A stretch of 64,000 nucleotides of DNA from Acidimicrobiia bacterium (GTDB taxonomy: Bacteria; Actinomycetota; Acidimicrobiia; Spongiisociales; JAENVV01), in NCBI GenBank assembly GCA_041635475.1, contig JBFKVA010000004.1, positions 2,640 through 66,639 on the forward strand. The letters are read 5' to 3'. Below the pieces are notes generated by a model, which saw only the letters and a list, made by a program, of their open reading frames with translations, was not told the DNA's origin and did no database searches. Position 1 is the stretch's first letter. The number at the start of each line of letters is the position of its first letter. The position numbers and the translations under genes are program-made. Of the stretch, positions 1 through 63,796 are shown piece after piece.

Positions 1-676
1 TCGACATGAACGCCGATACCCCGATGAGGCCGGCCAGGAGCTGCTTGGGACCCGACCCGGCGGTGGCGACGATCGACACCGCGGCGAGGCGGTCGAGCTC
101 GACCCGTTTCATGGCCTCGGCCATGAGGAATCCGGCGAAGAAGAGCACGATGATCGGGTCGAAGAAGTGCTCGAGGGCAGGTCCGGCACCCGACACGCCA
201 CCGGCGACGAGGGCGACGGGGATGAGGAGGGCCGTGGTGTGGAGGGGCAAGGCCTCGGTCACCCACAGGACGAGGACCGCGGCCAGGACCGCCGTGACCG
301 GTCGGGCATCGACCGGTGGACGGCGAAGCGCGGTGAGCGTCGGACCGTCGACCGTCGTGATCGGGACGAGTTCCAGCGTCCCGTCCGGGAGGAGGAGATG
401 GGCCTCGGCCGAACCCTCGGACGCCTCGATGCCGGTCAGCGTGACGGCGATCGTCTCGTCGACCGGGAAACCGCCGGGCGCCTCGAGCCAGAACCCGTCG
501 GCGGTGGCGACCTCGAGCGGCGTCGTGTCACCGATCTCGATCTCTTGGACGAAGACGACCTCGGACCCGATCGAGATGCGCAGTTCTCCGGGCCCGCTCG
601 GCCACTCGCCCGGGGCCGCCGACCACGCCCACGCGGAGAGGACGACCGCCAGAGCCACGGGCCAGATCCTCCCCAT
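1..676 (-). CDS. SLC13/DASS-type permease, N-terminal part, runs off the left edge
   Basis: Own minus-strand translation from ATG at 676: MGRIWPVALAVVLSAWAWS (signal-like), about 110 aa soluble segment, then TM segments VLWVTEALPLHTTALLIPV and IIVLFFAGFLMAEAM typical of DASS permeases. Frame stays open to position 1, so it is absent from the ORF track. Confidence 0.55.
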   Translation of the reverse strand, partial: MGRIWPVALAVVLSAWAWSAAPGEWPSGPGELRISIGSEVVFVQEIEIGDTTPLEVATADGFWLEAPGGFPVDETIAVTLTGIEASEGSAEAHLLLPDGTLELVPITTVDGPTLTALRRPPVDARPVTAVLAAVLVLWVTEALPLHTTALLIPVALVAGGVSGAGPALEHFFDPIIVLFFAGFLMAEAMKRVELDRLAAVSIVATAGSGPKQLLAGLIGVSAFMS

Positions 677-10832: not shown

Positions 10833-12431
10833 GTGCCGGCCATCACCTCGCGCATCGACCCCCGTTCCGACGAGTTCGCCCAGACCCGGGCGGAGAACCT
10901 GGCGATCCTCGCCGAGTACGAGCAGCTCATGAACGAGTCGCGGGCGGGGGGCGGCCCCAAGTACGTCGACCGCCATCGGGAACGAGGCAAGCTCCTCGTC
11001 CGGGAGCGCATGGAACTCCTCCTCGACCGCGACTCCCCTTTCTACGAGCTGAGCCCGATCGCCGGCTGGGGACAGTCGTACCCGATCTCGGGGAGCAACG
11101 TCACAGGTATCGGCGTCATCAGCGGGGTCGAATGCATGCTGACCGGCCACGACGCCACGATTCGGGGCGGCGCTTCCAACCCGATCAGCCTGGCCAAGAC
11201 TCTTCGGGCCCAGGACATCGCCACCGCCAACCGACTCCCCCTCGTGAACCTCGTCGAGTCGGGGGGCGCCGACCTGCCAACCCAAGCCGACATCTGGCTC
11301 CCGGGAGGGAAGTGGTTTCGCAACCTCACGAACATGTCCAAGGCGGGAATCCCCACCATCGCCATCGTCTTTGGCAACTCCACGGCCGGCGGGGCGTACG
11401 TCCCCGGGATGTGCGACTACGCCGTCATGATCAAGGACCGTTCGATGGTCTTCCTCGGTGGTCGACCCCTCGTGAAGATGGCCACCGGTGAGGACGCCAC
11501 CGAGGAGGAGTTGGGCGGCGCCGACATGCACTGTCGGGTGTCGGGCGTGGGCGACTACTACGCCATCGACGAGTACGACGCCCTGCGGATCGGACGCGAG
11601 ATCGTCGCCCACCTCAACTGGCGCAAGGCCGGGTACGGCCCCGTCCGCGCCCCCGTCGAACCGCTCTACGACCCGGAAGACCTCCTCGGCATCGTGCAGT
11701 CGGACCTTCGCAAGCCGTACGACATGCGAGAAGTGCTCGCCCGGGTCGTGGACGGGTCGGACATCGACGAGTACAAGCAACTCTACGGGCAGTCCCTCCT
11801 CACCTGCTGGGCCCACATCCACGGCTTCCCGGTCGGGGTCATCGCCAACCAGCAAGGCGTGCTGTTCTCCGAGGAGGCCCAGAAGGCCACCGAGTTCATC
11901 CAGCTCTGCAACCAGTACGACCAGCCGATCATCTTCATCCACAACACGACGGGGTACATGGTCGGCACCGAGTACGAGCAGGGTGGGATCATCAAGGACG
12001 GCGCCAAGATGATCAACGCCGTCGCCAACTCGACGGTCCCCCACATCGCCATCATGGCGGGAAGCTCATACGGGGCCGGCAACTACGGCATGTCGGGCCA
12101 CGCCTACCGACCCCGGTTCATCGTGGGCTGGCCGACCTACAAAGGAGCGGTCATGGGAGCCGAGCAACTCTCGGGCGTCCTCTCCATCGTGGCTCGGGAG
12201 AGCGCCGAGTCGATGGGCAGGGAGTTCGACGAGGAGGCCGACGCCCAGCGCTCGGCCCTCATCCACGCCCAGATCACCCACGAGGAGTCGGCCTTCTACA
12301 ACTCGGGACGGGTCCGGGACGACGGCCTCATCGACCCTCGGGACACCCGCACGGCCCTCGGCATCCTGCTCAGTGCCGTCCACTCGGCGCCGGTCAAGGG
12401 GACGAACGAGTGGGGCGTGTTCCGGATGTGA
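10833..12431 (+). CDS. acyl-CoA carboxylase carboxyltransferase (beta) subunit, methylcrotonoyl/geranyl-CoA carboxylase-like
   Basis: 532 aa, GTG start. GGGPKYVDRHRERGKL, NLVESGGADL and GNSTAGGAYVPGM motifs. Confidence 0.9.
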   Translation: MPAITSRIDPRSDEFAQTRAENLAILAEYEQLMNESRAGGGPKYVDRHRERGKLLVRERMELLLDRDSPFYELSPIAGWGQSYPISGSNVTGIGVISGVECMLTGHDATIRGGASNPISLAKTLRAQDIATANRLPLVNLVESGGADLPTQADIWLPGGKWFRNLTNMSKAGIPTIAIVFGNSTAGGAYVPGMCDYAVMIKDRSMVFLGGRPLVKMATGEDATEEELGGADMHCRVSGVGDYYAIDEYDALRIGREIVAHLNWRKAGYGPVRAPVEPLYDPEDLLGIVQSDLRKPYDMREVLARVVDGSDIDEYKQLYGQSLLTCWAHIHGFPVGVIANQQGVLFSEEAQKATEFIQLCNQYDQPIIFIHNTTGYMVGTEYEQGGIIKDGAKMINAVANSTVPHIAIMAGSSYGAGNYGMSGHAYRPRFIVGWPTYKGAVMGAEQLSGVLSIVARESAESMGREFDEEADAQRSALIHAQITHEESAFYNSGRVRDDGLIDPRDTRTALGILLSAVHSAPVKGTNEWGVFRM

Positions 12432-12490
12432 GAGGGAGCACGGAGAACGAAGTACGGAGCACGGGGAGTGAAGGGCGAAGTGGACAAGCA

Positions 12491-14461
12491 ATGATCAAGA
12501 AGGTCTTGGTAGCAAACCGGGGCGAGATCGCCCGCCGCATCATCGCGACCTGCCGCGACATGGGCATCGCGACGGTCGCCGTGTTCTCCGACCCGGACGC
12601 CGGCGCACCGTTCGTCAACGAGGCCGACCAGGCGGTCGCCCTCGGGGGGGCTTCGCCCACCGAGTCGTACCTCCGCATCGACGCCCTCCTCGACGCAGCC
12701 GCCCGCACCGGCGCCGACGCCGTCCACCCCGGTTACGGCTTCCTCGCCGAGAACGCCGAGTTCGCCCGGGCGTGCGTGGACGCCGGGCTCACGTTCATCG
12801 GGCCCACCGCCTCCACGATCGAGGCGATGGGCTCGAAGCTCGAGTCGAAGCGGATCATGACCGAGGCGGGGGTCCCCACGCTGCCCTCCCGGGAGATCGA
12901 CCCGTCCCACCCCGACGATGTCCTGTCGGCGGGTGAGGCCATCGGCTACCCGGTCCTCGTCAAGGCGTCAGCCGGCGGAGGTGGCAAGGGCATGCGAATC
13001 GTGCGGGACGCCGCCGACCTCGTCGAGGCGGCCCTGGGTGCGGCCCGGGAGGCCGCATCCTCCTTCGGCGATGCCACCGTGTTCCTCGAGAAGTACCTCG
13101 ACGAGCCTCGCCACGTCGAGATCCAGGTATTCGGGGACACCCACGGCAACGTCATCAGCCTCTTCGAACGGGAGTGCTCGATCCAGCGCCGGCATCAGAA
13201 GATCATCGAAGAGTGCCCCTCCCCGGCCCTCGACACCGACCTCCGGGCCCGGATGAGCGAGGCGGCCATCGCCGCCGGCAAGGCCGTGTCCTACGTTGGG
13301 GCGGGGACCGTCGAGTTCCTCCTCGATGCCTCGGGGGCGTTCTGGTTCCTGGAGACGAACACGCGGCTCCAGGTCGAGCACCCCGTCACCGAGATGGTCA
13401 CGGGCCTCGACCTCGTCCGGCTCCAGGTGATCGTCGCCGAGGGAGACCCGCTGCCGCCAGACGCCACCGAGGCGATGATCCACGGACACGCCATCGAAGC
13501 CCGGCTGTACGCCGAGGACCCGACCAACTCGTTCCTCCCGGCCACGGGCACGGTGCACTCGTTCTCGATCACGGAGGACGTTCGAGTCGACTCGGCCGTC
13601 GAGTCCGGATCGGTGGTGAGTGTCCACTACGACCCCATGATCGCCAAGGTCATCGCCTGGGCTCCCACCAGGCACGAGGCGGCCCGGGTCCTGGCGTCGG
13701 CCCTGGCCGGCGCCCGGATCCACGGCGTCACCACCAACCGGGAACTCCTCGTACGCATCCTTCGGGAGGAGGAGTTCCTCGCCGGGAGGACCGACACGCA
13801 CTACCTCGAGCGCCACGATCCGGCCACCATGGGGGGCCCGCTCACGACCGACGTGCGGCGTCACGCCCTGGCTGCGGCGCTGTTCGCCCAAGGGGAACGC
13901 CGGCGGCATGCCGGGCCTCTCGCCTCGGTGCCATCGGGATGGCGCAACTCGCCGTCCCAACTCCAGCGCACGACGTTCCGGGTGGGAACGAAGGACATCG
14001 AAGTCGGATACCTGTTCGGAAGGACCGGCCTGACGGCAGAGGTGGACGGCGACCCCATCGACGACGCGATCCTCGTCGAAGAGAGTCCGGCTGGGGTCCT
14101 GCTTCGCCTGGGTGGTGTCCAGGAGTTCTATTCGGTGACCCATGCCGGCGACACGTGGTTCGTGGATGGGCCGGAAGGGGCGACGACGCTGGTCGAACTG
14201 CCCCGCTTCCCCGGCCAGGACGTCGAGGAGCACACCGGCTCCCTCGTGGCACCGATGCCGGGGAAGGTGATCCGGATCGACGTCGAGGAGGGCGCCGTCG
14301 TTGCCAAGGGCCAGGTCCTCGTGGTCGTCGAGGCCATGAAGATGGAGCACTCCGTCAGGTCGCCGGTCGCCGGGACCGTCACCCACATCACCATCGTGGA
14401 GGGACAACAGGTCGACGGGGGCGAGGTGATGGTGGTCGTGGAGGATCGAGAGTCCGAGTAA
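12491..14461 (+). CDS. acyl-CoA carboxylase alpha subunit (biotin carboxylase plus biotinyl carrier domain)
   Basis: MIKKVLVANRGEIARRII. ATP-grasp KASAGGGGKGMR. C-terminal EAMKMEH biotinylation motif. Confidence 0.9.
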   Translation: MIKKVLVANRGEIARRIIATCRDMGIATVAVFSDPDAGAPFVNEADQAVALGGASPTESYLRIDALLDAAARTGADAVHPGYGFLAENAEFARACVDAGLTFIGPTASTIEAMGSKLESKRIMTEAGVPTLPSREIDPSHPDDVLSAGEAIGYPVLVKASAGGGGKGMRIVRDAADLVEAALGAAREAASSFGDATVFLEKYLDEPRHVEIQVFGDTHGNVISLFERECSIQRRHQKIIEECPSPALDTDLRARMSEAAIAAGKAVSYVGAGTVEFLLDASGAFWFLETNTRLQVEHPVTEMVTGLDLVRLQVIVAEGDPLPPDATEAMIHGHAIEARLYAEDPTNSFLPATGTVHSFSITEDVRVDSAVESGSVVSVHYDPMIAKVIAWAPTRHEAARVLASALAGARIHGVTTNRELLVRILREEEFLAGRTDTHYLERHDPATMGGPLTTDVRRHALAAALFAQGERRRHAGPLASVPSGWRNSPSQLQRTTFRVGTKDIEVGYLFGRTGLTAEVDGDPIDDAILVEESPAGVLLRLGGVQEFYSVTHAGDTWFVDGPEGATTLVELPRFPGQDVEEHTGSLVAPMPGKVIRIDVEEGAVVAKGQVLVVVEAMKMEHSVRSPVAGTVTHITIVEGQQVDGGEVMVVVEDRESE

Positions 14462-17013: not shown

Positions 17014-17835
17014 TCAGGCGAGGAGCAGTACCGCCCCCACACCGAGCACGACGCCCATGACTTGGATCGGCAGCGGACGCTCCTTGAGGTACAGCACTGC
17101 CGCCGCCACCGTGAACACCGGGTACAGGCTGCCGAGAACGGCCACGATCGAGAGCGGGCCCCGCTGGGCGGCCAGCACGATGAACACGTTGGCGAGCATG
17201 TCGAGGACGCCGGCGGTGAGCACCCACCGCAGGTAGCCCGCCACCGGCGGCCATCGGTCGGGCCCGGCCAGCGAAAGCGAGATCCCGATCGACGCTGCCC
17301 GGGCGGGCACGAGTGGCCACAGGCCGGCGGCCTCCGACGTGAACGACATGGCGACGAAGAAGGACCCGAAGAACACTCCCGCCCCGAGCGCCATCCACAC
17401 CGGTCGTCGGTCGATTGGCGTCCCCGCGCCCTGCCAGGTGACGGCAACGATGGCGGCCATGGCCAGCGTGATGCCCACCACCTGGAAAGGGCCCAGCGCC
17501 TCGCACCGGAGCAGTCCGACTCCCACCGAGAACACCGCCCCGGCCGCCGCCGACACCGGAGCGACCACGGACATCACCCCCGACGCCAGCGCCCGGTAGA
17601 GGAGGTTGAGCCCGAGCATGCCGGCCACCCCGGCCACCGCGCCGAACGCGAGGTCGGCCGCCCCGACCGACGGGGCGGGGACGATGACCAAACCCCCGGC
17701 CAGCACCAAGACCCCGACCAGTTGGGTCCAACCGACGACGGCCCAGGCCGAACGGGACTTCGCCGTGAAACCCCCGGCGAAGTCGGCGAGGCCGTAGGCG
17801 ACCGCCGACGCGAGCGCGAGGAGGCCGGGGTTCAC
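17014..17835 (-). CDS. EamA/DMT family transporter
   Basis: LALASAVAYGLADFAGG and 10 TM helices. 4-nt overlap with the upstream gene. Confidence 0.8.
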   Translation of the reverse strand: MNPGLLALASAVAYGLADFAGGFTAKSRSAWAVVGWTQLVGVLVLAGGLVIVPAPSVGAADLAFGAVAGVAGMLGLNLLYRALASGVMSVVAPVSAAAGAVFSVGVGLLRCEALGPFQVVGITLAMAAIVAVTWQGAGTPIDRRPVWMALGAGVFFGSFFVAMSFTSEAAGLWPLVPARAASIGISLSLAGPDRWPPVAGYLRWVLTAGVLDMLANVFIVLAAQRGPLSIVAVLGSLYPVFTVAAAVLYLKERPLPIQVMGVVLGVGAVLLLA

Positions 17836-18524
17836 GGGCGAAGGCGACCCATGAACCGTTCTCGGTCCCGGTTCCAGCCCTCGACATCGATGGCCCGTGC
17901 TTCCACCTGGCGCAGGCGTGCCTTGGTGGCGGCCACGACCTCCGGCTGGAGGTCCTGCTGGTGATCGAGCAGGAGGAGGGCGGCTTCGACCGCCTCGCCC
18001 GACCGGGCCACGCGGGCCACGAGACCCGCCGACACCGCCTCGACGGCGGGGATCCGGTCGTTCACGTGGAAGAGCCGCGCCACCGTCTGATGGGGGAGCC
18101 GACTGGCAAGGAGGTCGAGTCCCTCCGGCCGGTAGAGGACACCGAGCTTGGTGGCCGGTATCTCGAAGAAGGCACGTTCGTCGCAGACCCGGATGTCACA
18201 CGACATCGCCAGCTCGACCCCACCCCCGACACAGGCCCCGTTGATCGCCCCCACGATCGGGAGCGGTGAGTCCAGGAGACGACGGGACAACCGCGCCAGC
18301 GCCTCCTCGAGCCCGGTCCCACGGGCACGCAGGTCGTCGAAGTCGGCCCCGGCGCAGAAGACGCCGTCGCTCCCGGTGACGACCACACCTCGCGTCCCGT
18401 CGGCCTCGATCTCGTCGAGGAGGGCGACGAGGCTCGTCATGAGTTCGACGGAGAGCGCGTTGCGGCGGTGTGGGCGATTGAGGGCGACGACCGCGATGGC
18501 GCCGAAGCGCTCGGTGAGGAGCAT
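17832..18524 (-). CDS. enoyl-CoA hydratase/isomerase family protein
   Basis: VALNRPHRRNAL, FCAGADF and GACVGGGVELA crotonase motifs. Confidence 0.85.
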   Translation of the reverse strand: MLLTERFGAIAVVALNRPHRRNALSVELMTSLVALLDEIEADGTRGVVVTGSDGVFCAGADFDDLRARGTGLEEALARLSRRLLDSPLPIVGAINGACVGGGVELAMSCDIRVCDERAFFEIPATKLGVLYRPEGLDLLASRLPHQTVARLFHVNDRIPAVEAVSAGLVARVARSGEAVEAALLLLDHQQDLQPEVVAATKARLRQVEARAIDVEGWNRDRERFMGRLRP

Positions 18525-21809: not shown

Positions 21810-24081
<2,272 letters not shown>

Positions 24082-28354: not shown

Positions 28355-29416
28355 TCACAATTCGGGGAGTTGCCTTCCCACCAGGTTGCCGCCGGCTCCC
28401 CGGGACTCCTCGATCCCCAGCAGGGCTGTGGCCAGGAGGGCGTCGGCCGAGTCCCCACTTCGGGGCTCGTGGACAGCGATTCCCACCGAGGCGGTTATCA
28501 CCTGGGCGGTGTCCGAGGACGGGTGGGCGATGGAGAGTGCCGCCACGGCCTCCCGGGCGCGGGTCCCTGCCCTTCCGATCTCCGAGGCGTCGGTCGCCGG
28601 CAGGACCACCGCGAACAGGTCATCCTCGAGGCGGGCCGCCACCTCGCCCGCTCTCTGGAACGACTCCCGGAGGGCGTCGGCCACCCGCCTCAGTACTCGA
28701 TCCCCCTCGCTCCGGCCCTCCACCGCGTTGTAGGCGGCGAACGAGTCGAGGTCGGCGACGACCACGCCGAGCGGGAGTCCCGCTCGGTCGGCCCGTCGCA
28801 CCTCGATACGCAGGAGTTGGTCGAAGCGGGCCCGGTTGGCCAGGCCGGTCAGCGCGTCGTCGAAGGCGAGGTCGCGAAGGACGCGCTGGGCTCGCTTGTG
28901 GTCGAGGATCGCCCATGTGCTGTGCATGAGCATCGAGACCCGCCGGCGGTCAGCTTCGCTGTACGGCGAACGCTTGTTGAGGACCCCGCCAACCGCCACC
29001 ACGTCGCCCTGGGCAACGATGGGACTGCTGACGAACCGGTGGACCGCCCCGGGGTAGTCGAGGCCGCGAGTCGCGGCTTGATCGAGCGGGCCCTCGCCGG
29101 CGACGAGTACCTCGCCCGACGAGGCCACCTGCGCCCAGTCCCCCGCCTCGGCGATCACGATCCGCCGATCGGAACCGCCGATCCCACTCGACCAGGTCCC
29201 CGACTCCAATGTTCCATCGGCTTGGTTGACCACGAAGAGGAACGCCGCTTCGCTCCGGGTGAGTTCGGCCACGATCTCAAGCGCCTCGTCGCGGGCGTCG
29301 GAGGTCGCGACATCGGGATGCTGGGCGAGGCGCATGAGGGACTCGAGCAGCTGCGCAGTGCGGCGGAGACGACCCAGTTCGTCGTTCAATGCCTCGATGT
29401 CACCGACCATGGCCAC
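28355..29416 (-). CDS. GAF domain protein with degenerate GGDEF domain
   Basis: GAF-like N-half. DALTGLANRARF opens the GGDEF fold, but the active-site position reads RLEDDLF instead of RxGGDEF/GGEEF. Confidence 0.8.
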   Translation of the reverse strand: MAMVGDIEALNDELGRLRRTAQLLESLMRLAQHPDVATSDARDEALEIVAELTRSEAAFLFVVNQADGTLESGTWSSGIGGSDRRIVIAEAGDWAQVASSGEVLVAGEGPLDQAATRGLDYPGAVHRFVSSPIVAQGDVVAVGGVLNKRSPYSEADRRRVSMLMHSTWAILDHKRAQRVLRDLAFDDALTGLANRARFDQLLRIEVRRADRAGLPLGVVVADLDSFAAYNAVEGRSEGDRVLRRVADALRESFQRAGEVAARLEDDLFAVVLPATDASEIGRAGTRAREAVAALSIAHPSSDTAQVITASVGIAVHEPRSGDSADALLATALLGIEESRGAGGNLVGRQLPEL

Positions 29417-34223: not shown

Positions 34224-34964
34224 TCACCCCGGCAGGTTGGCGTGGATGGCGTCGCGGACGAACTGGGCCAGGCCGACCTGGCGGTCCTCGTAGTGCTTCG
34301 TGAACCGAGGGTCGCTCACGTAGCCGTCGGCGAGCATCGCGTGCATCTCGTGGGAGCACGGGTAGAACCACCGATCGATGTGGAGGCGAGCACGCTCTGC
34401 CAGTGCGATCGCTTCCGCCGACCGTGGGGAGGCCCCGGCCACCACGAGGGCCGCGAACGCAGCCTCGACGTCCTCGATCTCACCGCCGAGCCGCTGCCAG
34501 TCGTCCCTCTTGTAGGACGCCGTCCGCCGGCTCGATTCCTTGTAGGCGTCGGTCTCACCCCATCGCGCCTTCACCTCGTCTTCGTACTCGGCGGGATCGA
34601 AGCCCCCGAAGAGCTCTGCGTCGGTCATGTCGTCTCCTTCTTCGGCGTCCAAGGTTCGTTCAACCGTGTCGATGATCGTGTCCAGCCGCCTCCGTCGCCG
34701 CCGCAGTGCCAGCACATGGCGCCGGAGGGCGTCCCGGCGACCCGCGGCCCCGCCGTCGAGTGCCGTTCCGATGGCTCGGAGCGGGACTTCGAGTTCGCGC
34801 AGGACGAGGACTTGCTGCAGGCGCTCCAGGTCGGAGCGGTCATACATCCGATACCCGGCGTCGGTCCTTCGACTCGGGGACACCAGGCCGATCTCGTCGT
34901 AGTGGTGGAGGGTGCGGACGGTGACGCCGGACATACGGGACACCTCGCCCACCGAGTAGGTCAT
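34224..34964 (-). CDS. MerR family regulator with TipAS-like C-terminal domain
   Basis: MTYSVGEVSRMSGVTVRTLHHYDEIGL. C-terminal FDPAEYEDEVKARWGETDAYK resembles TipAS. Confidence 0.85.
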   Translation of the reverse strand: MTYSVGEVSRMSGVTVRTLHHYDEIGLVSPSRRTDAGYRMYDRSDLERLQQVLVLRELEVPLRAIGTALDGGAAGRRDALRRHVLALRRRRRRLDTIIDTVERTLDAEEGDDMTDAELFGGFDPAEYEDEVKARWGETDAYKESSRRTASYKRDDWQRLGGEIEDVEAAFAALVVAGASPRSAEAIALAERARLHIDRWFYPCSHEMHAMLADGYVSDPRFTKHYEDRQVGLAQFVRDAIHANLPG

Positions 34965-34970
34965 GTCCCC

Positions 34971-35001
34971 ACGGTACACCCTCACGATACGTGAGGGTCA
35001 A
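34971..35001 (-). promoter_or_regulatory. MerR-type promoter TTGACC-19 nt-TACCGT with dyad CCCTCAC-N5-GTGAGGG in the spacer
   Basis: Read directly. The -10 ends 6 nt before the MerR ATG, which implies a leaderless mRNA. Confidence 0.55.
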
Positions 35002-35066: not shown

Positions 35067-36617
35067 ATGGTGTCACCCCTCGAACGGCCCGAGATCGCCC
35101 ACGCCATCATTGCTGCCAGCGGCGATGGGGCAGCCATCTCCTCCACGGATCTCCGGGTGACCTGGGCCAACGAGCGAGCCCACGAACTGCTCCGGGCCCG
35201 AGCGGGGTCGCTCGTGGGCCGGCACCTGTACTCCTTCCTCACCGCGGAGGATCTCTCGCGCCCGAAGGCAGACTGGCGCTCCTTCCACGACGGTGCCCTT
35301 CGCCATGTCCCCATGCAGGCCCGCAACGACCTCTTCTTGACCCGGGACGACACCACGCAGGCCAGTTTCGTCATCGGCGCATCCCGGCTCGCCGACGACA
35401 CCGTGCTCCTGCTGTTCAACGAGTTCGAGGGGCGTGCCGAGGTCGAGCAGAGGGCGGAAGGGCTGGCCCGGCGGTACCAAGACCTCTTCCAGAGCATCCC
35501 GGTGGCAGTCTGGGAGATCGACATGCGGGGCCTGGAAGGATGGCTGGCATCGCTCCCGTGCGAACCCCTCGAGACAGCCGCCTACCTCCAGGCGCACCCG
35601 AAACAGGTCGTCGATCATCTCGATCTCCTCGACGTCCGGGCGGTGAACAGGGCCGGCCTCGCCCAACTCGAGGCCCAATCGGCTGCCAGCGAGGACGTGT
35701 CAAAGGCGATGATGGGCGGCGCCCGCCTGGACACCCTCGGCGGGTTCGCGACCCAGTTCCAGGCCGTTCGGACCCGCACCCGGTCCATCGTGACCGAGGG
35801 CGTGGCCGGTACCGGTTCCGGCGGCCACTTCTTCACCGAGGTCCACCAGTTCATTCCGGACGGCCCCGACGGGCCCGACCTCAGCCGGGTCATCGTCACC
35901 CTCATCGACACCACGCGGGCCAAGGAGACCGAGGTCGCGCTGGGCACCGCCATCGAAGCTCGCGATCGGCTCATCACGTCCGTCGCCCACGAACTCAGAA
36001 CGCCGCTCACCGTCGTCACGGGCCTCCTGCAACTCCTCCGGGAATCGCCCGGGCGTCTCGAGGAGTCGGACATCCTCCGCCTCGTGGAGACGGCCACCTC
36101 AGAGGCCGAGGATCTCAATCACCTCATCGATGACCTTCTCACCTACTCCCGCATCGACACGAGCGACTGGCGGATCTCACCAAGACCGACGGACCTCCGA
36201 CCACTCATCGAACAGACCACGGTTCGGGGTGAGGACGGCCAGCGCCTCGCCCTCGACATCAACGGTGAGGCGGACTGCTTCGCCGACCCCCGGCGGGTTC
36301 GACAGATCGTCCGCAACCTCGCCACCAACTCGGTCCGCTACGGCGGTCCCACGGTCCGGGTGGACTTGTGGTGTGACGAGAGCGCCCACGTCGAATGGCG
36401 GGACAACGGTGCCGCCACCGCCGACATGGAGCGTATCTTCGAGCCATTCCACCAGGCCCACTCCCGGCCCTCCCAGCCATCCTCACTCGGTCTCGGCCTC
36501 ACCATTTCGAGGGGGCTGGCGGACGCCATGGGGGGCAGCCTCGCGCATCGCCGCGAGAACGGCTGGACGGTCTTCGAACTCATCCTTCCTCGAGGGTCGG
36601 CACCGCCGCCGGGGTGA
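35067..36617 (+). CDS. cytoplasmic PAS-domain sensor histidine kinase
   Basis: Two PAS-like segments. H-box VAHELRTPL. HATPase N/G boxes (NLATNSVRYG, GLGLTISRGL). Confidence 0.85.
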   Translation: MVSPLERPEIAHAIIAASGDGAAISSTDLRVTWANERAHELLRARAGSLVGRHLYSFLTAEDLSRPKADWRSFHDGALRHVPMQARNDLFLTRDDTTQASFVIGASRLADDTVLLLFNEFEGRAEVEQRAEGLARRYQDLFQSIPVAVWEIDMRGLEGWLASLPCEPLETAAYLQAHPKQVVDHLDLLDVRAVNRAGLAQLEAQSAASEDVSKAMMGGARLDTLGGFATQFQAVRTRTRSIVTEGVAGTGSGGHFFTEVHQFIPDGPDGPDLSRVIVTLIDTTRAKETEVALGTAIEARDRLITSVAHELRTPLTVVTGLLQLLRESPGRLEESDILRLVETATSEAEDLNHLIDDLLTYSRIDTSDWRISPRPTDLRPLIEQTTVRGEDGQRLALDINGEADCFADPRRVRQIVRNLATNSVRYGGPTVRVDLWCDESAHVEWRDNGAATADMERIFEPFHQAHSRPSQPSSLGLGLTISRGLADAMGGSLAHRRENGWTVFELILPRGSAPPPG

Positions 36618-55384: not shown

Positions 55385-56323
55385 TTGCTTGAGATGCCCG
55401 ATTCAGCGCCCGACACCCTCCCCCCCGGCCCTCGCCTGCTCATGGCCGGCGACGAGGACCTGGCCACCGCCTTGCGTCGGATGGCCCTCGAGCAGGCCGA
55501 GGTCGTCATCAGGGGGTTCGAGGTCAACGGGGACGACGTGCTCCTCGACCACGCCGTCCACCAGGCCCGCAAGGCCGGCAAGCGACTGCGTGCCCTGCTC
55601 CGGCTCTGTCGATTCGAACTCGGCGCCCATCGGTACCGGTGGGCCAACGCGGTCGTTCGCGACCAATGCCGGCTGCTCTCCGGAGCGCGCACCTCTGCCG
55701 TGCTGTTGCGGACCCTGGACGAACTGATCGTCGACTACTCGATCGAAGACGAAGGGCGGCTCCGCGACGTCCTCGCTCGTCACCATGCCGACTCGCTGGC
55801 CCAGCTGAGACTCGACTCGTTCGGCAGCGACGAAGCGAAGAGGGCACTCACCGACGTCGTGGATGGTATCCGCACATTGCCGGTGCCGGCCGAGTACCGC
55901 TCGGGCGACATCACCGCCTTGGAGCGAGGCATTCGGCGGGCCTACCGCAATGGGAAGCGGACCATGAGAGCGGCACGCCGGCTCGACACGGCCGACGCGT
56001 TCCACGAGTGGCGAAAGAAGGCCAACTACCTCCGGTTCCAACTGGAGGCACTGAGCGGCGTGTGCGCACCGCCCATTGCCGCCCTCGCCGAAGCTCTCGA
56101 GGAACTCGTGGAAGTGCTCGGATCGGATCACGACCTCGCCGACCTTCTCGATGTCGCCGGGGCGCCGAATGTGGGAGCCACCGAGTTGCCCGCTCTCATC
56201 GAGGAGAGGTCGAGGCCCCTGCGGGGAGACGCCCTGCGCCTCGGGTCACGGGTCTTCGACACGACGAACGACGGTTTCGTCCGCTTCTTCGCCGAACAGG
56301 CCCAGCCCGCACCGGCCCGGTGA
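55385..56323 (+). CDS. CHAD domain-containing protein
   Basis: Helical protein with conserved-His segments VHQARKAGKRLRALLRL and FHEWRKKANYLRFQLEAL. An ATG at 55394 is an alternative start. Confidence 0.75.
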   Translation: MLEMPDSAPDTLPPGPRLLMAGDEDLATALRRMALEQAEVVIRGFEVNGDDVLLDHAVHQARKAGKRLRALLRLCRFELGAHRYRWANAVVRDQCRLLSGARTSAVLLRTLDELIVDYSIEDEGRLRDVLARHHADSLAQLRLDSFGSDEAKRALTDVVDGIRTLPVPAEYRSGDITALERGIRRAYRNGKRTMRAARRLDTADAFHEWRKKANYLRFQLEALSGVCAPPIAALAEALEELVEVLGSDHDLADLLDVAGAPNVGATELPALIEERSRPLRGDALRLGSRVFDTTNDGFVRFFAEQAQPAPAR

Positions 56324-56364
56324 AGCCTGGGTGGCCGACTCCTGGTCGCCGACCACTGGACCCT

Positions 56365-56856
56365 TCAGGCGCCGAAGCCTCCGAATCGGCGATCGAGGTA
56401 GAGCAGGGGCTCGATCGGATCATCCGAGAGGTGGACGTGCTCGATCCGACCGACCACGATGTCATGGCTCGACCTCGGAAAGCGCGCTTCGAGAACGCAC
56501 TCGAAGCCCACGAGTGCATCCTCCAGCAGGGGTACGCCCAGCGTCCCAGCCGACCACTCCCCGACCGCGAAGCGGTCCTCACCCTCCAAGCCGGTCATCC
56601 CGGCGAAGGCCTTCGCAACCTCCTCCTGGGCGCGGGCGAGGACGTTCACCGAGAACGCCCGGTTCTCGATGAGCGAGGGCAGGCTCCCGCTGTCCCGGCT
56701 CACGCAGGCCAGCAGCGTCGGCGGTTCGGCGGTCAGGGAGGTGACCGCCGAGGCGGTCAGCCCGGCACGCGCCCCTTCGACCCCGGTGGCCACGATCGTG
56801 ACCGCCGCCGCCAGTCGCTGCATCGCGCTGCGAAAGTGGTCGAGGTCGATGGCCAT
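56365..56856 (-). CDS. flavin reductase family protein
   Basis: MAIDLDHFRSAM and GLTASAVTSLTAEPPTLLACV. Confidence 0.8.
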   Translation of the reverse strand: MAIDLDHFRSAMQRLAAAVTIVATGVEGARAGLTASAVTSLTAEPPTLLACVSRDSGSLPSLIENRAFSVNVLARAQEEVAKAFAGMTGLEGEDRFAVGEWSAGTLGVPLLEDALVGFECVLEARFPRSSHDIVVGRIEHVHLSDDPIEPLLYLDRRFGGFGA

Positions 56857-56892
56857 GGGACTGACGCTAGTTGGACCATCCGCCGGGGGGGC

Positions 56893-59800
56893 ATGGCCGG
56901 GGCCAGGCCGGGGCGGCGTAGCCTTGTGGACGTGCACATCGACGACCTCCTCACCGCCACCCGGGAGACGGAGATCGAAGCCCTCCCGGCCCTCGCCGTC
57001 GACCTGGCAGCCCTCCTTCTGGCCGAGTCACTCGAGCACCGCACCCACGACGACCGGCAGAACGCCGAACGGATGGCCGCGATGATGCGGGACCCGGACG
57101 GCAAACGCCTCACGGTGTCGCTGTTCGACCAGGTGTTCCGGGCCCATGCCCCGGCTCGGATCGCCGACCAACTCGATCACCTCATCGGTCGCTCCGGCGT
57201 TCCCCACTACTTCGCCGGCTGGGAACGCGTCGCCATGGGGATCGGAGCCGTCGCCGGGCGGTTCCTGCCCGGCGTCGTCGTCCCGGCGATCATTTCGCGG
57301 GTCCGGGCAGAGACGTCGGGGATGATCCTCCCGTCGGAGGAGAACCAGCTCGCCGATCACCTCGATCGACGTCGCCGCGACGGCGTGCGCATGAACATCA
57401 ACTACCTCGGGGAGGCGATCCTCGGGGAGGAGGAGGCCGCCACCAGGCTCGGCAAGTACCTCGACCTGCTGGCGCGCCCCGACATCGAGTACATCTCGGT
57501 GAAGATCTCCTCGATCTTCTCCCAGATAGACCATGTCGCGGCCGAGGCCACCCTGGAGACGCTCAAGGACCGCTTGCGGGTCCTCTATCGCACCGCCGAG
57601 GCGTTCACGTTCACCGCTGACGACGGCACCGTCCGCAAGAAGTTCGTGAACCTCGACATGGAGGCCTACGGCGACCTCCACCTCACCTTCGACGCCTTCA
57701 CCCAGACCCTCGACCTCGAGGAGTTCCGGGACTTCACGGCCGGGATCGTGCTCCAGGCCTACCTCCCGGACTCGTTCCCCCTCCAGCAGGAGTTGACCGA
57801 TTGGGCCGTCGGCCGAGTGGCGTCCGGGGGGGCGCCGATCAAGCTGCGGATCGTGAAGGGTGCCAATCTCGCCACCGAACTCGCCGACGCCTCCTGGCAC
57901 GGCTGGCCCCAGGCGCCGTACGCCACCAAGGGCGAGGTCGACAGCAACTTCACGCGGATGGTCCGCTATGCCAGCCGGCCCGACCACGCCGTGGCCGTCC
58001 GTGTCGGCATCGGTTCCCACAATCTCTTCGACGTGGCCCATGCGCTCCTGCTGCGGGCTCACCACGGCACCGATGAGCACGTGGAGATCGAGATGCTGGA
58101 GGGCATGGTCAACCACCAGGCGAGGGCGGTCCAGGACGTAGCCGGGTCCATGCTCCTGTACGCGCCGATCGTCGAGGAGAAGGACTTCCGATCGGCGATC
58201 GCCTACCTCATCCGTCGCCTCGACGAGAACACCGAGGAGGAGAACTTCCTCCACGATCTGTTCGGGATGGTCCCCGGGGACCCTGCCTTCGTGCGCCAGG
58301 CGGACCGATTCCTGGCGGCCACGGCCCTCGAGGCGCCCACCGGGCCTCGACGGAGCCAGGATCGACGCTCCGAGTCCTTTGGGTTCGACCCGTCGGCCCC
58401 GTTCGCCAACGTGGCCGACACCGACTTCTCGCTGCCCGCCAACCAGGCATGGGTGCGCTCGATCGCCGAGGACTGGCAGCACCGCGTGGTCCCCGACATC
58501 CGCCCGGTGGTCGACGGCGAGGCGGTCACCTCGGATCGGTGGAGGGACGGCCACGATCCCTCCCGCCCCGGGGACGTCGCCTACCGCTGGCTGCGGACGA
58601 GCGGTGACCAGATGCTCGCAGCCATCTCCGGGGCCGTCGAGGCATCCGTCGGGTGGGCCGCGACCCCGCCCGCCCACCGCCGTCGCGTCCTCGAGCGATG
58701 CGCCGAGGAGCTCGCCCGCCGGCGGACCGAGTTCGTCGGGGCGATGATGCTCGACGCCGGCAAGTCGGCAGTCGAGGCCGACGTCGAGGTGAGCGAGGCC
58801 GTCGATTTCGCCCGCTACTACGGGCGACACCTCAATGAGCCGACGGACGGTGCGTCGGCGACCCCACTCGGGGTCGTGGCCGTGATCCCCCCGTGGAACT
58901 TCCCACTGGCGATCCCGGCCGGGGGCGTCCTGGCGGCCCTGGCGGCAGGCAACGCCGTCCTGTTCAAGCCGGCGTCCGAGACGGTGCTCATCGGGTCGAT
59001 GATCGCCGAGGCGCTATGGGCGGCCGGCGTCCCCCACTCGGTCCTCCAGTTCGTCCCGGCGTCCTCCGACGCTGCCTCGCACCTCGTCGACGATCCCCGC
59101 GTGGGTGGCGTCATCCTCACCGGGGCCTGGGAAACCGGCCGGATGTTCCTGGATCGACGCCCCGACCTCAGGCTGTCGGCGGAGACATCCGGCAAGAACG
59201 CCCTCATCGTCTCGGCCATGTCCGACCGGGACCAGGCCATCAAGGACCTCGTCAAGTCTGCCTTTGGGCACAACGGCCAAAAGTGCTCGGCGGCCAGCCT
59301 CGGCATCCTCGAGGCCGAGGTCTACGACGACCAGGTGTTCCTCCGGCAACTGGCGGATGCCGTCAGGTCGCTCCATGTCGGGGCGCCCTGGGACCTCGAG
59401 TCCAAGGTCACGCCGGTCATCCACGCCCCCGGACCCGATCTACTGCGGGGACTCACCGCCCTGGACGATGGGGAGAGCTGGCTCGTCGAGCCGAGGCACC
59501 TCGGCGGGAACCTGTGGGCCCCGGGTGTCCGCCTGGGCGTGCAACCCGACTCGTTCTTCCACCGCATCGAGTGCTTCGGCCCGGTCCTCGGCCTCATGCG
59601 GGCGCCCGACATGGACACCGCCATTGCCTGGGTGAACTCCTCCGAGTACTCACTCACCGGCGGCCTCCACTCACTCGACGAACGCGAGATCGACCGCTGG
59701 GCCGACGACGTCGAGGTGGGCAACGGGTACGTCAACCGTCACATCACCGGCGCCATCGTCCGTCGCCAGCCGTTCGGGGGGTGGAAGAAGTCGAGCTTCG

Positions 59801-60444
59801 GTTCGGGAGCCAAGGCCGGTGGGCCCAACTACGTCGCGTCGCTGGCCCGCTGGATCGAAGCCGGCCTCCCCGCCACCACCGGGGACGTCGGAAACGACGT
59901 TGTCGCGCTCGTCGCCGCAGCCGCTGGCTTGAGGGAGCGGGCCACGGCGGCCGCCGGTTCCTACGCCGCGGCGTGGCGCGACCACTTCTCACTCGTCCAT
60001 GACCCCTCCGCGGTGCGGGGAGAGATCAACGGCTTCCGCTATCGGCCGGCACCGAGGGTCCTCGTCCGCGTGCTTCCCGACGGGAACCCGGAGGACGCGC
60101 TGCTGGCGGCGATGGCCGCACGAACGTGCGGGACACCCGTCGAGATCTCGGTGGGTGACGGCACCGCCTGGCCATGGAAGGAGTTCCCGGTCCCGGTGGT
60201 GTCCGAGTCGGACAGCGCGTTCGGTGCCCGCCTCACGTTGGACGACCGGGTGCGGGTCATCGGGGCTGCGCCCCGCTCCCTGTGGGAGAGCGCCCGGGAC
60301 GCCCACGCTCGCGTCTTCGACGACCCGGTCGTGGCCCAAGGACGGATCGAGCTGCGCTGGTACGTCCGGGAACAAGCGATGTCGATCCGTACCCACCGCT
60401 ACGGCAACCTCGTCGGCCTTGGGGAGCACGCCCTCGACCGATAG
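56893..60444 (+). CDS. putA: bifunctional proline dehydrogenase / L-glutamate gamma-semialdehyde dehydrogenase
   Basis: PRODH barrel segments (NINYLGEAILGE, IVKGANL, EMLEGM). ALDH segments (PWNFPLAIP, ETSGKNA, FGHNGQKCSA). An alternative GTG start lies at 56926. Confidence 0.9.
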   Translation: MAGARPGRRSLVDVHIDDLLTATRETEIEALPALAVDLAALLLAESLEHRTHDDRQNAERMAAMMRDPDGKRLTVSLFDQVFRAHAPARIADQLDHLIGRSGVPHYFAGWERVAMGIGAVAGRFLPGVVVPAIISRVRAETSGMILPSEENQLADHLDRRRRDGVRMNINYLGEAILGEEEAATRLGKYLDLLARPDIEYISVKISSIFSQIDHVAAEATLETLKDRLRVLYRTAEAFTFTADDGTVRKKFVNLDMEAYGDLHLTFDAFTQTLDLEEFRDFTAGIVLQAYLPDSFPLQQELTDWAVGRVASGGAPIKLRIVKGANLATELADASWHGWPQAPYATKGEVDSNFTRMVRYASRPDHAVAVRVGIGSHNLFDVAHALLLRAHHGTDEHVEIEMLEGMVNHQARAVQDVAGSMLLYAPIVEEKDFRSAIAYLIRRLDENTEEENFLHDLFGMVPGDPAFVRQADRFLAATALEAPTGPRRSQDRRSESFGFDPSAPFANVADTDFSLPANQAWVRSIAEDWQHRVVPDIRPVVDGEAVTSDRWRDGHDPSRPGDVAYRWLRTSGDQMLAAISGAVEASVGWAATPPAHRRRVLERCAEELARRRTEFVGAMMLDAGKSAVEADVEVSEAVDFARYYGRHLNEPTDGASATPLGVVAVIPPWNFPLAIPAGGVLAALAAGNAVLFKPASETVLIGSMIAEALWAAGVPHSVLQFVPASSDAASHLVDDPRVGGVILTGAWETGRMFLDRRPDLRLSAETSGKNALIVSAMSDRDQAIKDLVKSAFGHNGQKCSAASLGILEAEVYDDQVFLRQLADAVRSLHVGAPWDLESKVTPVIHAPGPDLLRGLTALDDGESWLVEPRHLGGNLWAPGVRLGVQPDSFFHRIECFGPVLGLMRAPDMDTAIAWVNSSEYSLTGGLHSLDEREIDRWADDVEVGNGYVNRHITGAIVRRQPFGGWKKSSFGSGAKAGGPNYVASLARWIEAGLPATTGDVGNDVVALVAAAAGLRERATAAAGSYAAAWRDHFSLVHDPSAVRGEINGFRYRPAPRVLVRVLPDGNPEDALLAAMAARTCGTPVEISVGDGTAWPWKEFPVPVVSESDSAFGARLTLDDRVRVIGAAPRSLWESARDAHARVFDDPVVAQGRIELRWYVREQAMSIRTHRYGNLVGLGEHALDR

Positions 60445-61773: not shown

Positions 61774-63264
61774 TCACTGGGTGGCGGGCCGCGCGCCTTC
61801 GAGTACACCGTCCAGCGCCTGGAAGTCACCGGAACTGACCGCCTTGATCAGCTCATCCTTGATCGGGGTGAAGTGCATCGTCCACCCGGTGTAGCCGGCG
61901 TGCTCGATTCGTTCGTCCCACAGGGTTGTGACGTCCTCGTGCCGGGGGTCCTTCGAGATCCGGTCGAAGACCGCCGCCACCGCCTCGTTCGGTCCGTCGA
62001 GGACCTGGAGGAACCGATCCCCCGAATAGAGCAGCACACCACCGATCCCCACTGCGTCGTTTCGCGCCCGGGACCGCCGGACCAATAGGGCAAGTGATCC
62101 GGCGTCGAATGCCGTCCGCGCCCGGCTCACATAGACGACGCGACGGAGGTCGGTCGGGTCGCCCTTGTGGGGAATGGAGAGTGTGAACCTCGTCCCGCCT
62201 CCAGCGCGACGTTCCGCGGTCAACTCGCCTCCCACGCGATGCAGGAGGTCGCGACACAGGGCCAATCCCACCCCACCCCCCAGCTCACCGTGGGTGCCGA
62301 GCCTCGATGACTGGACGTCGCCCCGAGCCAGCGCGGCGATCGCCCCATCCGAGATGCCGTCCCCCTCATCATCGATGTGGACGTGGACCTCGTCGTCCAC
62401 CACGACCTGGGAGGCACGCACCGTGCCGCCCTCCGGGCTGTACTTGATTGCGTTCTCGAGGATGTTGCGGATGGCGGTCCTGAGCAGGTCCGGTTGGGTG
62501 AGTGCCCATGCCCCTTCCAGGCCACTCAGGTCGATCTCGATCCCCTTCGCCTCGGCCATCGTTGCCAGGGAGTCGCCGATCGATGAAGCGACGCCGCGAA
62601 GACTGACCGGCAGGCTGGGGACATGGCTGGCCTGGCGGCCCAGGCGGGCCCACCCCAGCACCTCATCGACCAACTCGAGGGTGTTGTGGGCGCGCAGCCT
62701 CAGGTCGGGGAGGAGCTCGATGACATCGTCCTCGGTGAGGCCCTCGCCCGGGTTGGCGGCCGAGTCGATCAGGCTGGTCAGGGTGGAGAGCGGACCCCGT
62801 ACATCGTGGGAGAGCAGGCCCAGGAGGAGGTCCCGGAACGCCGATTCCTCCTGCTGTGCAGCGATGGCCTTCGTCAGCGATCGCTCCGCCTCCACCTGCT
62901 CGGTGATCTCGATGGAGATGCCGCCTAGGAATACCCGCCCGTCCTCCTGGGGGAGCGGCACCTTCCATGAGAGGTAGTGCACCGGTCGCCCATCGGAGAC
63001 CACGATCTCCGCGACCTGTTCCGCCGTGAGCGTTTCCTGGACCCGGCTGTCGTTCTCGGCCATCGCCCTGGCCATGTCCTCGGGGAACAGGTCCCATCCG
63101 GACTTGTGCATCCACTCGTCCACTTCGATGCCGAACGCCACTCCGAAGGCCGGGTTCATGTAGATCAAACGATGCTGGTCGTCCTTGACCCAGTTCAACG
63201 TCGGAGATCGCTCCAGCAGGCCTTCAAGCAGGACGCTCAGGTCCCAGCCTTCCGCTGCCTCCAT
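61774..63264 (-). CDS. hybrid sensor: PAS - HisKA - HATPase_c - C-terminal BLUF domain
   Basis: GAGGAGG SD. H-box LSHDVRGPL. N-box IRNILENAIKYSP. G-boxes DDEGDGI and GGGVGLALC. C-terminal aa 373-465 (nt 61870-62148) LRRVVYVSRA..GIGGVLLYSGDRFLQVLDG..DPRHEDV..GWTMHF matches BLUF hallmarks. Confidence 0.85.
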   Translation of the reverse strand: MEAAEGWDLSVLLEGLLERSPTLNWVKDDQHRLIYMNPAFGVAFGIEVDEWMHKSGWDLFPEDMARAMAENDSRVQETLTAEQVAEIVVSDGRPVHYLSWKVPLPQEDGRVFLGGISIEITEQVEAERSLTKAIAAQQEESAFRDLLLGLLSHDVRGPLSTLTSLIDSAANPGEGLTEDDVIELLPDLRLRAHNTLELVDEVLGWARLGRQASHVPSLPVSLRGVASSIGDSLATMAEAKGIEIDLSGLEGAWALTQPDLLRTAIRNILENAIKYSPEGGTVRASQVVVDDEVHVHIDDEGDGISDGAIAALARGDVQSSRLGTHGELGGGVGLALCRDLLHRVGGELTAERRAGGGTRFTLSIPHKGDPTDLRRVVYVSRARTAFDAGSLALLVRRSRARNDAVGIGGVLLYSGDRFLQVLDGPNEAVAAVFDRISKDPRHEDVTTLWDERIEHAGYTGWTMHFTPIKDELIKAVSSGDFQALDGVLEGARPATQ

Positions 63265-63325
63265 GAATCCTCCTCAGGACACAAGGAGCCTAGTTCAAAC
63301 CCACTCGGGGCCCGAGGGGCCCTCC

Positions 63326-63796
63326 TCACCCATTCCGGAGCAGGCCCCCGAGGACGCCAAGCGAGGCCCCCAGTTGCCCGGCCTCCCGTTCGTCGAGTCC
63401 CGCAACCCTCTCCGCCAGCAGCCTGATTCGCTCCGCCCTTCCCCGTCCGAGCAGGGCGGTGCCCGCCGGCGTGACATGCACCTCGACGACGCGCCGATCC
63501 ACTTCGGATCTCCGCCGCTCGGCCAGGCCCCTCCGCTCGAGCTTGTCGACATGGTTGGTGATTGCCGGCGACGACACCTGTTCACGCTCTGCCAGCCCGC
63601 CGATCGTCTGCGGGCCCGCGAACACGAGCACCGACAGGATCGATGCCTGCGGTGCAGTGAGGTACATGACTTCATCGGCCTCCCTGATCGAGCGGAGGAG
63701 ACGAACCACAATCGAGTTCAACTCGTTCGCCAGTCGATGGTTGGCATCGTCCGGCACCCCGGGAGGGAGGGGTGGGAGGGCTGACCGTGTTGACAC
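63326..63796 (-). CDS. MarR family transcriptional regulator
   Basis: LTAPQASILSVLVFAGPQTIGGLAEREQVSSPAITNHVDKLERRGL. GTG start. Confidence 0.85.
   Translation of the reverse strand: MSTRSALPPLPPGVPDDANHRLANELNSIVVRLLRSIREADEVMYLTAPQASILSVLVFAGPQTIGGLAEREQVSSPAITNHVDKLERRGLAERRRSEVDRRVVEVHVTPAGTALLGRGRAERIRLLAERVAGLDEREAGQLGASLGVLGGLLRNG

Follow-up and report, generated by a model that had tools for sequence, protein, structure and literature searches.

Light-regulated histidine kinases have served as the main model for sensor-kinase signalling and are the basis of widely used optogenetic switches. To our knowledge, all characterised members place the photosensor ahead of the DHp domain and signal through a coiled coil. 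For example, in the LOV histidine kinases YF1 (PDB 4gcz), SB2F1 (8a3u), EL346 (4r3a) and Brucella LOV-HK (6ph4), a LOV-type PAS sensor lies N-terminal to DHp and acts by coiled-coil signalling. Here, we analysed a gene with a different layout in a stretch of 64,000 nucleotides (nt) of contig JBFKVA010000004.1 from an Acidimicrobiia bacterium (the whole stretch is hereafter called the window). An open reading frame (ORF) on the minus strand, with an ATG start and its stop codon inside the range 61774-63264, encodes a protein of 496 amino acids (aa) in which PAS, DHp and CA (HATPase_c) domains are followed by a C-terminal BLUF domain. On the basis of its sequence and a structural model, we propose, with somewhat better than even confidence, that this protein is a dual-input orphan kinase whose activity would be modulated by blue light.

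BLUF domains have been described mainly in other contexts. In the census of Losi et al. 2014 (PMC4844311), 64% of them were short proteins and 34% were linked to EAL. The short BLUF photoreceptors, such as BlrB (2byc), PixD/Tll0078 (1x0p), Slr1694 (2hfn) and BlsA, have in common with the kinase described here a BLUF core and two cap helices. However, they are free-standing and signal through non-covalent partners, whereas the BLUF domain of the kinase is attached covalently behind the catalytic domain by a linker of about six residues. The fusions of BLUF with enzymes, including BlrP1 (3gfx, BLUF-EAL), YcgF, bPAC/OaPAC (5m27/4yus) and AppA, are homologous to our domain at E-values of 2e-11 to 5e-6 and likewise couple BLUF to a dimeric enzyme or effector. 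In these proteins BLUF is N-terminal and acts via its C-terminal helices on a downstream effector, whereas in the kinase the effector precedes BLUF and the polypeptide terminates with the cap helices. Two-component kinases are not among the effector classes of the characterised BLUF-enzyme fusions. The table of selected architectures in Kaushik et al. 2019 gives EAL, B12, cyclase, REC, AcrR, GGDEF and PAS as partners and lists no kinase, and a passage in one review mentions BLUF units in sensor kinases as present and uncharacterised. The phrase 'BLUF-histidine kinase' did not occur in any of about 8.3 million full texts, and we found no study of the function, structure or physiology of a histidine kinase that contains BLUF. 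The initial annotation of this DNA had presented the gene as a new photoreceptor architecture with no characterised counterpart. Our survey agrees with this as far as function is concerned, but fusions of BLUF with kinases were already known at the database level according to that review, and therefore only the biology is new and not the existence of the fusion.

Compared with the LOV histidine kinases, the protein likewise combines a histidine kinase with a predicted flavin-based blue-light sensor, and these kinases are the closest structural match to its PAS-helix-DHp-CA part (Foldseek, E = 4.5e-21). However, its flavin domain is BLUF, which has another fold and another photochemistry and is located C-terminal to CA, and its PAS domain carries neither a Cys nor a LOV motif. 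Judging from these sequence features, the kinase falls outside the LOV-HK and bacteriophytochrome families, because an N-terminal photosensor is absent and the sole chromophore-type domain follows CA, although it may still function as a photoreceptor kinase does. Hybrid histidine kinases with a C-terminal receiver, of which P0198, P0213, P0251 and P0259 were among the best matches to the kinase core, also possess an extra alpha/beta domain straight after CA. Their receiver is flavodoxin-like and takes the phosphoryl group, whereas BLUF is ferredoxin-like, belongs to a flavin-binding family and contains no Asp acceptor.

The assignment of the C-terminal domain was based on profile, fold and photoactive residues. 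The Pfam BLUF model matched aa 373-463 over model positions 1-91 of 92, with a score of 84.1 bits against a gathering threshold of 25 (E = 7e-24), which is well beyond chance. When the BLUF part alone was compared with the PDB, it matched BlrB (2byc) at E = 5e-15 and TePixD (1x0p) at E = 1e-10, and also BlrP1, AppA, Slr1694 and photoactivated cyclases; over all BLUF chains in the PDB, E-values ranged from 5e-15 to 2e-5. Tyr378, Gln420, Trp461 and Met463, which the initial annotation had named as key residues, aligned without gaps to the photoactive sites of TePixD, and the interval it had given for the domain (nt 61870-62148, aa 373-465) agreed with our coordinates; further equivalent positions are listed in Table 1. 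We also built a monomer model with AlphaFold2 (AF2) from a co-linear alignment of 41 sequences (alignment A4), with a mean predicted local distance difference test (pLDDT) score of 84.6. For the BLUF region, the model gave strand 373-382, helix 388-405, strands 408-414 and 417-425, helix 426-438 and strands 442-453 and 462-467 (pLDDT about 83-92). This predicted beta-alpha-beta-beta-alpha-beta-beta topology corresponds to a ferredoxin-like fold over aa 373-467, and it is followed by two predicted cap helices like those of short BLUF proteins (Table 1). Short BLUF proteins could be aligned through this C-terminal cap region of the kinase, in which an AVSSGD motif is kept across the high-GC clade described below (alignment A1). 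The nearest relatives of the domain were stand-alone proteins of 115-218 aa with at most 49% identity, all of which had the Tyr and the Gln and nearly all of which had the Met. The profile, the predicted fold and the photoactive residues together place the domain in the BLUF family, and we would expect it to bind flavin and to undergo a photocycle.

The remaining parts of the protein correspond to a sensor kinase. Pfam identified PAS_4 at aa 17-124 (E = 4e-15; PAS, E = 6e-9) and HATPase_c at aa 257-366 (E = 6e-19). The AF2 model contained a PAS fold at aa 9-119 (pLDDT 88-97), a continuous helix (121-170) leading from PAS into DHp helix 1, DHp helix 2 at 178-212 and a CA domain at 218-365, whose last strand (358-365) precedes the first BLUF strand. 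In a Foldseek comparison with the PDB, the top matches were PAS/LOV-DHp-CA kinases, from YF1 (4gcz, E = 4.5e-21) through SB2F1 and VicK down to E = 4e-16. These alignments spanned at most about 390 columns, and no solved structure covering the kinase core and BLUF together was found in that comparison. In the PDB search, the H-box SHDVRGPL aligned with SHELRTPL of VicK and also with the DHp domains of HK853 and other solved kinases. The motifs and residue numbers reported by the initial annotation proved correct, namely the H-box LSHDVRGPL with His153, the N-box IRNILENAIKYSP, G1 DDEGDGI and G2 GGGVGLALC, and the order of PAS, DHp (His153), HATPase_c and C-terminal BLUF that it had proposed was upheld by Pfam, the PDB search, the alignments and AF2. 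By its H, N, G1 and G2 boxes the protein is a class I histidine kinase, with predicted activity. Its N-terminal PAS domain contains neither a Cys nor the NCRFLQ motif, and is therefore not a LOV domain. The protein is most likely soluble and cytoplasmic, with two input modules and no response-regulator gene adjoining it.

We then asked how widespread and how well conserved this fusion is. We searched 1.84 billion representative proteins exhaustively with HMMER and annotated the matches with Pfam; the best 150 matches were covered, beyond which fusions of BLUF with unrelated kinase cores could exist. The identical 496-aa protein was encoded on a contig of NCBI assembly GCA_041637055.1 and in the Logan assembly of SRR29257361, and a 98% variant (P0001) was present in two more runs. 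Two relatives, P0002 (54% identity) and P0003 (53%), share the order of the four domains. The same architecture was found in the more distant P0176 (529 aa, 33-34% identity) and P0179 (526 aa, 26-29%), and P0222 (433 aa, 27-29%) is a kinase-BLUF protein whose ORF contains no PAS. The gene for P0222 (locus L027, 7771-9302) is frameshifted, with a PAS fragment in frame 1 just upstream of the kinase-BLUF ORF in frame 3, and neighbouring genes in L027, MatE among them, are fragmented too. Long-read assembly errors therefore seem to account for the missing PAS, and P0222 would not be a true PAS-less variant. P0175, P0177, P0182 and P0183 are truncated fragments of the family. The family is thus very rare, with four demonstrable clusters and these fragments among the best 150 matches. 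Word-indexed homolog searches with the full protein, the BLUF part or a family profile returned only P0001-P0003 and missed P0176, P0179 and P0222, and so they are unreliable as a census. A scan of GTDB representative genomes yielded nothing beyond generic kinases of 20-31% identity, none of them fused to BLUF. In a BLUF profile scan of the 389 proteins gathered for this analysis, BLUF occurred in long proteins only within the kinase-BLUF family, always at the C-terminus, and no kinase with an N-terminal BLUF was present among them.

By GC content, the loci form two groups: a high-GC group (the window, 68.6%; L014 with P0003, 64%; L019 with P0002, 61%) and a group at 54-56% (L020, L023 and L027). 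Each of P0176 and P0179 was found on roughly 100 contigs from one JGI sample series, including contigs longer than 1 Mb; their loci (L020, 8001-9590, and L023, 8001-9581, respectively) have equal GC (56%) and different neighbourhoods, and the two may be paralogous kinase-BLUF genes of one recurrently sampled organism.

The conservation pattern indicates that BLUF is part of the kinase. His153, Asn267, Asn271, Asp299, Gly301, Gly303, Gly331 and Gly333 were invariant in the full-length members, and Tyr378, Ser380, Asn402 and Met463 were invariant across the BLUF domains of the family; in the protein of the window, the catalytic and the photoactive residues are all intact. The distance from the end of CA to the BLUF Tyr, which includes the linker of about six residues, was constant within one residue across the family (alignment A3). 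BLUF was as conserved as CA in every comparison; for example, the identities of BLUF and CA were 59% and 49% between the kinase and P0002, and 85% and 82% between P0002 and P0003. All domains diverged in parallel across the family. A single old fusion under purifying selection would be expected to leave this pattern, and the equal conservation of BLUF and CA argues for such selection on BLUF as a part of the kinase. PAS was the best-conserved domain in the comparison with P0176 (49% identity, against 26-33% for DHp, CA and BLUF), which suggests a shared PAS ligand or signal across the high-GC and 56% GC clades. Overall, the fusion is genuine and conserved, and also very rare.

Table 1. Positions of the kinase gene, its predicted domains and residues, and the adjoining regulator gene in the window
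Feature	Position (nt)	Strand	Basis
PAS-DHp-CA-BLUF histidine kinase gene, complete	61774..63264	-	ORF list, Pfam domains, identical protein in other assemblies
Shine-Dalgarno sequence (GAGGAGG) of the kinase gene, 6 nt before its ATG	63269..63275	-	Direct sequence reading
N-terminal PAS domain, aa 12-120	62905..63231	-	Pfam PAS_4 (E 4e-15) and PAS (E 6e-9); AF2 PAS fold
Signalling helix and DHp four-helix-bundle segment, aa 121-212	62629..62904	-	AF2 helices; H-box aligned to VicK and HK853
Codon of phospho-acceptor His153	62806-62808	-	H-box alignment
CA (HATPase_c) ATP-binding domain, aa 218-366	62167..62613	-	Pfam HATPase_c (E 6e-19); invariant catalytic residues
Linker from CA to BLUF, aa 367-372, KGDPTD	62149..62166	-	Alignment A3; AF2 secondary structure
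BLUF flavin-binding domain (predicted), aa 373-467	61864..62148	-	Pfam BLUF; gap-free alignment with TePixD and BlrB; AF2 topology
C-terminal cap helices, aa 468-496, after BLUF strand beta5	61777..61863	-	AF2 helices 470-477 and 481-491; alignment A1
Codon 420, photoactive Gln	62005-62007	-	CAG; His in P0003 (L014, 1704-3209) and P0002 (L019, 101-1588)
Tyr378, equivalent to TePixD Y8			Gap-free alignment
Ser398, equivalent to TePixD S28			Gap-free alignment
Asn402, equivalent to TePixD N32			Gap-free alignment
Gln420, equivalent to TePixD Q50			Gap-free alignment
Arg435, equivalent to TePixD R65			Gap-free alignment
DPRH 439-442, equivalent to TePixD DPRH 69-72			Gap-free alignment
Trp461, equivalent to TePixD W91			Gap-free alignment
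Met463, equivalent to TePixD M93			Gap-free alignment
MarR-family regulator gene, its end separated by 61 nt from the kinase start downstream	63326..63796	-	Pfam MarR (E 5e-15)

According to the reading that we favour, a signal perceived by PAS would reach the DHp bundle via the continuous signalling helix, which is the canonical route. Blue light would excite the flavin of what appears to be a complete FAD/FMN-type BLUF domain, and proton-coupled electron transfer involving Tyr378 would rearrange the hydrogen-bond network of Gln420. As a result, strand beta5 (with Trp461 and Met463) and the two C-terminal cap helices would shift. Such a shift of beta5 and the cap helices on illumination is established BLUF photochemistry. 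With BLUF held tightly to CA, the movement would alter the mobility of CA or its access to His153, possibly via BLUF-BLUF or BLUF-DHp contacts in the dimer, and the altered autophosphorylation would in turn alter the transfer of the phosphoryl group to a response regulator whose gene lies elsewhere in the genome. Because BLUF is tied to the last CA strand by only about six residues, its likely targets are the mobility of CA, the ATP lid, or the interfaces of CA with DHp or of BLUF with BLUF in the dimer, as opposed to the coiled coil through which LOV and phytochrome kinases signal. Flavin binding, the photocycle, and the direction, route and output of this regulation are inferred.

Several observations weigh against this reading and concern the kinase core, the structural model, the genomic context and the BLUF domain itself. 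The Pfam models for BLUF, HATPase_c and PAS matched as the initial annotation had predicted, but HisKA (PF00512), which it had also expected, gave no match to the kinase at E <= 1. HisKA did match the co-linear members P0176, P0179 and P0222 (E = 8e-8 to 5e-7; 30-33 bits against a cut-off of 26.9), and the DHp of the kinase aligned without gaps to the DHp of these distant members. Since it also aligned to solved DHp domains, we consider the DHp of the kinase to be real but divergent. The residue at H+4 is Gly in the high-GC clade (HDVRG, aa 153-157, 62794-62808) and Thr in P0176 and P0222; HisKA kinases usually have Thr or Asn at this position, which is tied to phosphatase activity. In addition, the usual F-box phenylalanines between G1 and G2 were absent (aa 309-325, about 62290-62340) in the alignment with VicK. 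Because of the Gly at H+4 and the absence of these phenylalanines, the enzymology of the kinase may be atypical. As for the structural model, AF2 run on the monomer gave the BLUF fold and the cap helices, but its predicted template modelling score of 0.54 means that it informs the folds of the domains and not their relative placement.

No receiver domain was detected in the 64-kb window by phmmer with CheY, PhoB and NarL as queries, and no response regulator was present in the gene lists of loci L014, L017, L020, L023 and L027. The kinase is therefore regarded as an orphan. A second soluble PAS-HisKA-HATPase_c kinase is encoded in the window (35067-36617, plus strand), also with no adjoining response regulator, and a MerR/TipAS-type regulator gene (34224-34985, minus strand) is divergent from it. 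Furthermore, no photolyase, carotenoid, rhodopsin or photosynthesis gene was found within the window.

A further observation concerns the photoactive Gln, a residue that the canonical BLUF photocycle requires. At this position, P0002 and P0003 have His, encoded by CAC on both contigs where the kinase gene has CAG, whereas Gln was present in 54 of the 54 stand-alone BLUF relatives that we checked. The Tyr, Asn, Trp and Met positions are unchanged in both proteins, which share 85% identity over the BLUF domain. We found no literature on a BLUF variant with this replacement. The pattern suggests that BLUF can serve the kinase without the classical photocycle, and P0002 and P0003 may belong to a natural lineage in which BLUF photochemistry has changed or disappeared.

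An alternative rests mainly on this lineage. BLUF would then not sense light at all, serving in the dark to sense flavin or redox state or forming a purely structural or dimerisation appendage, and PAS would be the only real input. The strong conservation of the domain in P0002 and P0003 in spite of the His, the replacement of Trp461 by Gln in P0179, the lack of photobiology genes in the window, and the flavoenzyme PutA and the flavin reductase encoded beside the locus in the high-GC clade speak for such a role. However, the set of Tyr, Asn, Gln and Met is kept in the kinase itself and in P0176, P0179 and P0222, and we know of no role for this set besides the photocycle. The BLUF Trp, for its part, is dispensable. 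The synteny with PutA is convergent and not operonic, and it is absent in the 54-56% GC clade. We consider a BLUF domain unconcerned with light unlikely, at the upper end of what that word covers.

Next in order is the possibility that BLUF is a docking module, gated by light, to which the response regulator or some other partner binds, so that light would set substrate access and PAS would set the catalytic rate. The BLUF domain and cap helices most resemble the stand-alone short BLUF proteins, which signal by protein-protein binding; PixD, for example, binds the receiver-like protein PixE. BlsA has been reported to bind the response regulator BfmR and an OmpR-type protein in a light-dependent manner (review, PMC8508746). 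In the kinase, BLUF occupies the place where the hybrid kinases P0251, P0198 and P0259 carry their receiver domain, and the kinase was an orphan in all five loci examined, which would also fit a role in partner recruitment. What speaks against a freely presented module is the very short and conserved linker, which suggests rigid coupling to CA, and allostery is compatible with the docking reading too. We judge docking as the principal function to be improbable. Finally, the explanation that a frameshift, a mis-assembly or read-through joined a kinase to a separate short BLUF gene can draw on the abundance of short BLUF genes, which are the nearest relatives of the domain, and on the error-prone contig of P0222, but it deserves almost no credence given that the ORF is identical in the NCBI and Logan assemblies and recurs as a 98% variant in two more runs, that an unbroken ORF with the same linker length recurs in five further homologs from other samples, and that the GC content at third codon positions of the kinase ORF (0.84) is in line with the other genes of the window. 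Independent assemblies and conserved continuous ORFs effectively rule out an assembly artefact.

Returning to the blue-light-modulated kinase, we also entertain, tentatively and at clearly less than even chances, a broader version of this proposal. In it, a rigid C-terminal BLUF would control the kinase while bypassing the DHp coiled coil, either by restraint of CA or by light-gated recruitment or occlusion of the regulator. Together with PAS, the protein would then be a natural two-input (light AND/OR ligand) kinase, and the lineage with His for Gln would represent non-canonical photochemistry or a function in the dark.

The gene order in the window was ABC transporters, amidase, CHAD, flavin reductase (-), PutA (+), MFS (+), kinase (-) and MarR (-). 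The MarR gene may be co-transcribed with the kinase, but it is not a conserved partner. No promoter-like site was found around the kinase gene, and the sole terminator-like match falls inside the MarR ORF. At the P0003 locus (L014), the order was thioredoxin, kinase, PutA (convergent), flavin reductase and ABC transporter, and both the MarR and the MFS gene were missing. The PutA proteins of the window and L014 share 72.5% identity, and we therefore interpret this shared neighbourhood as vertical synteny and not as evidence of a functional linkage. The neighbours at the 54-56% GC loci (L020, L023 and L027) were unrelated.

Other features of the window were recorded as follows. The listed ORF of 1601 aa at 55639-60444 (+) is over-extended: the PutA domains (Pro_dh and Aldedh) start only after about 56.9 kb, and its 5' part overlaps the CHAD gene (55385-56323, +) and the flavin reductase gene (56365-56937, -). 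An S-adenosylmethionine (SAM; S-box) riboswitch was detected at 23359-23444 (-), with 70.2 bits against a gathering threshold of 44.4, in the 5' leader of a gene for a pyridoxal-phosphate-dependent enzyme of Cys/Met metabolism; because the riboswitch lies within it, the listed ORF of 581 aa (21810-23555) extends too far in the 5' direction. The ClpB encoded in the window scored best against PDB entry 6dju (1063 bits), the ClpB of Mycobacterium tuberculosis, ahead of 1qvr from Thermus (997 bits) and 4d2q from E. coli (979 bits); with a GC content of 68.6%, this fits Actinomycetota but is no proof of it. At 28355-29416 (-), a gene for a GAF-GGDEF protein (candidate diguanylate cyclase) adjoins genes for a luciferase-like monooxygenase and an amino-acid-kinase-family protein. 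Genes at 1821-3572 (-), 10833-14461 (+) and 17832-18524 (-) encode an AtuA-family protein, an acyl-CoA carboxylase carboxyltransferase subunit, a biotin carboxylase subunit with an MCC-type BT domain and an enoyl-CoA hydratase. By their predicted products, these genes look like a catabolic cluster for acyclic terpenes or leucine (Atu/Liu-type).

If the proposed regulation is correct, this protein would be the first studied BLUF-regulated two-component kinase, and it would reveal a new regulatory geometry that acts on the CA domain or on substrate access. With BLUF following the catalytic core and the N-terminal PAS input retained, the arrangement could suit kinase engineering. The lineage in which Gln is replaced by His provides a natural experiment on the need for the BLUF glutamine, and this lineage and the inverted order of sensor and effector should be of interest to specialists in photoreceptors and two-component systems. 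For the organism, the finding would mean that blue-light signalling also occurs in a high-GC lineage that has been poorly sampled.

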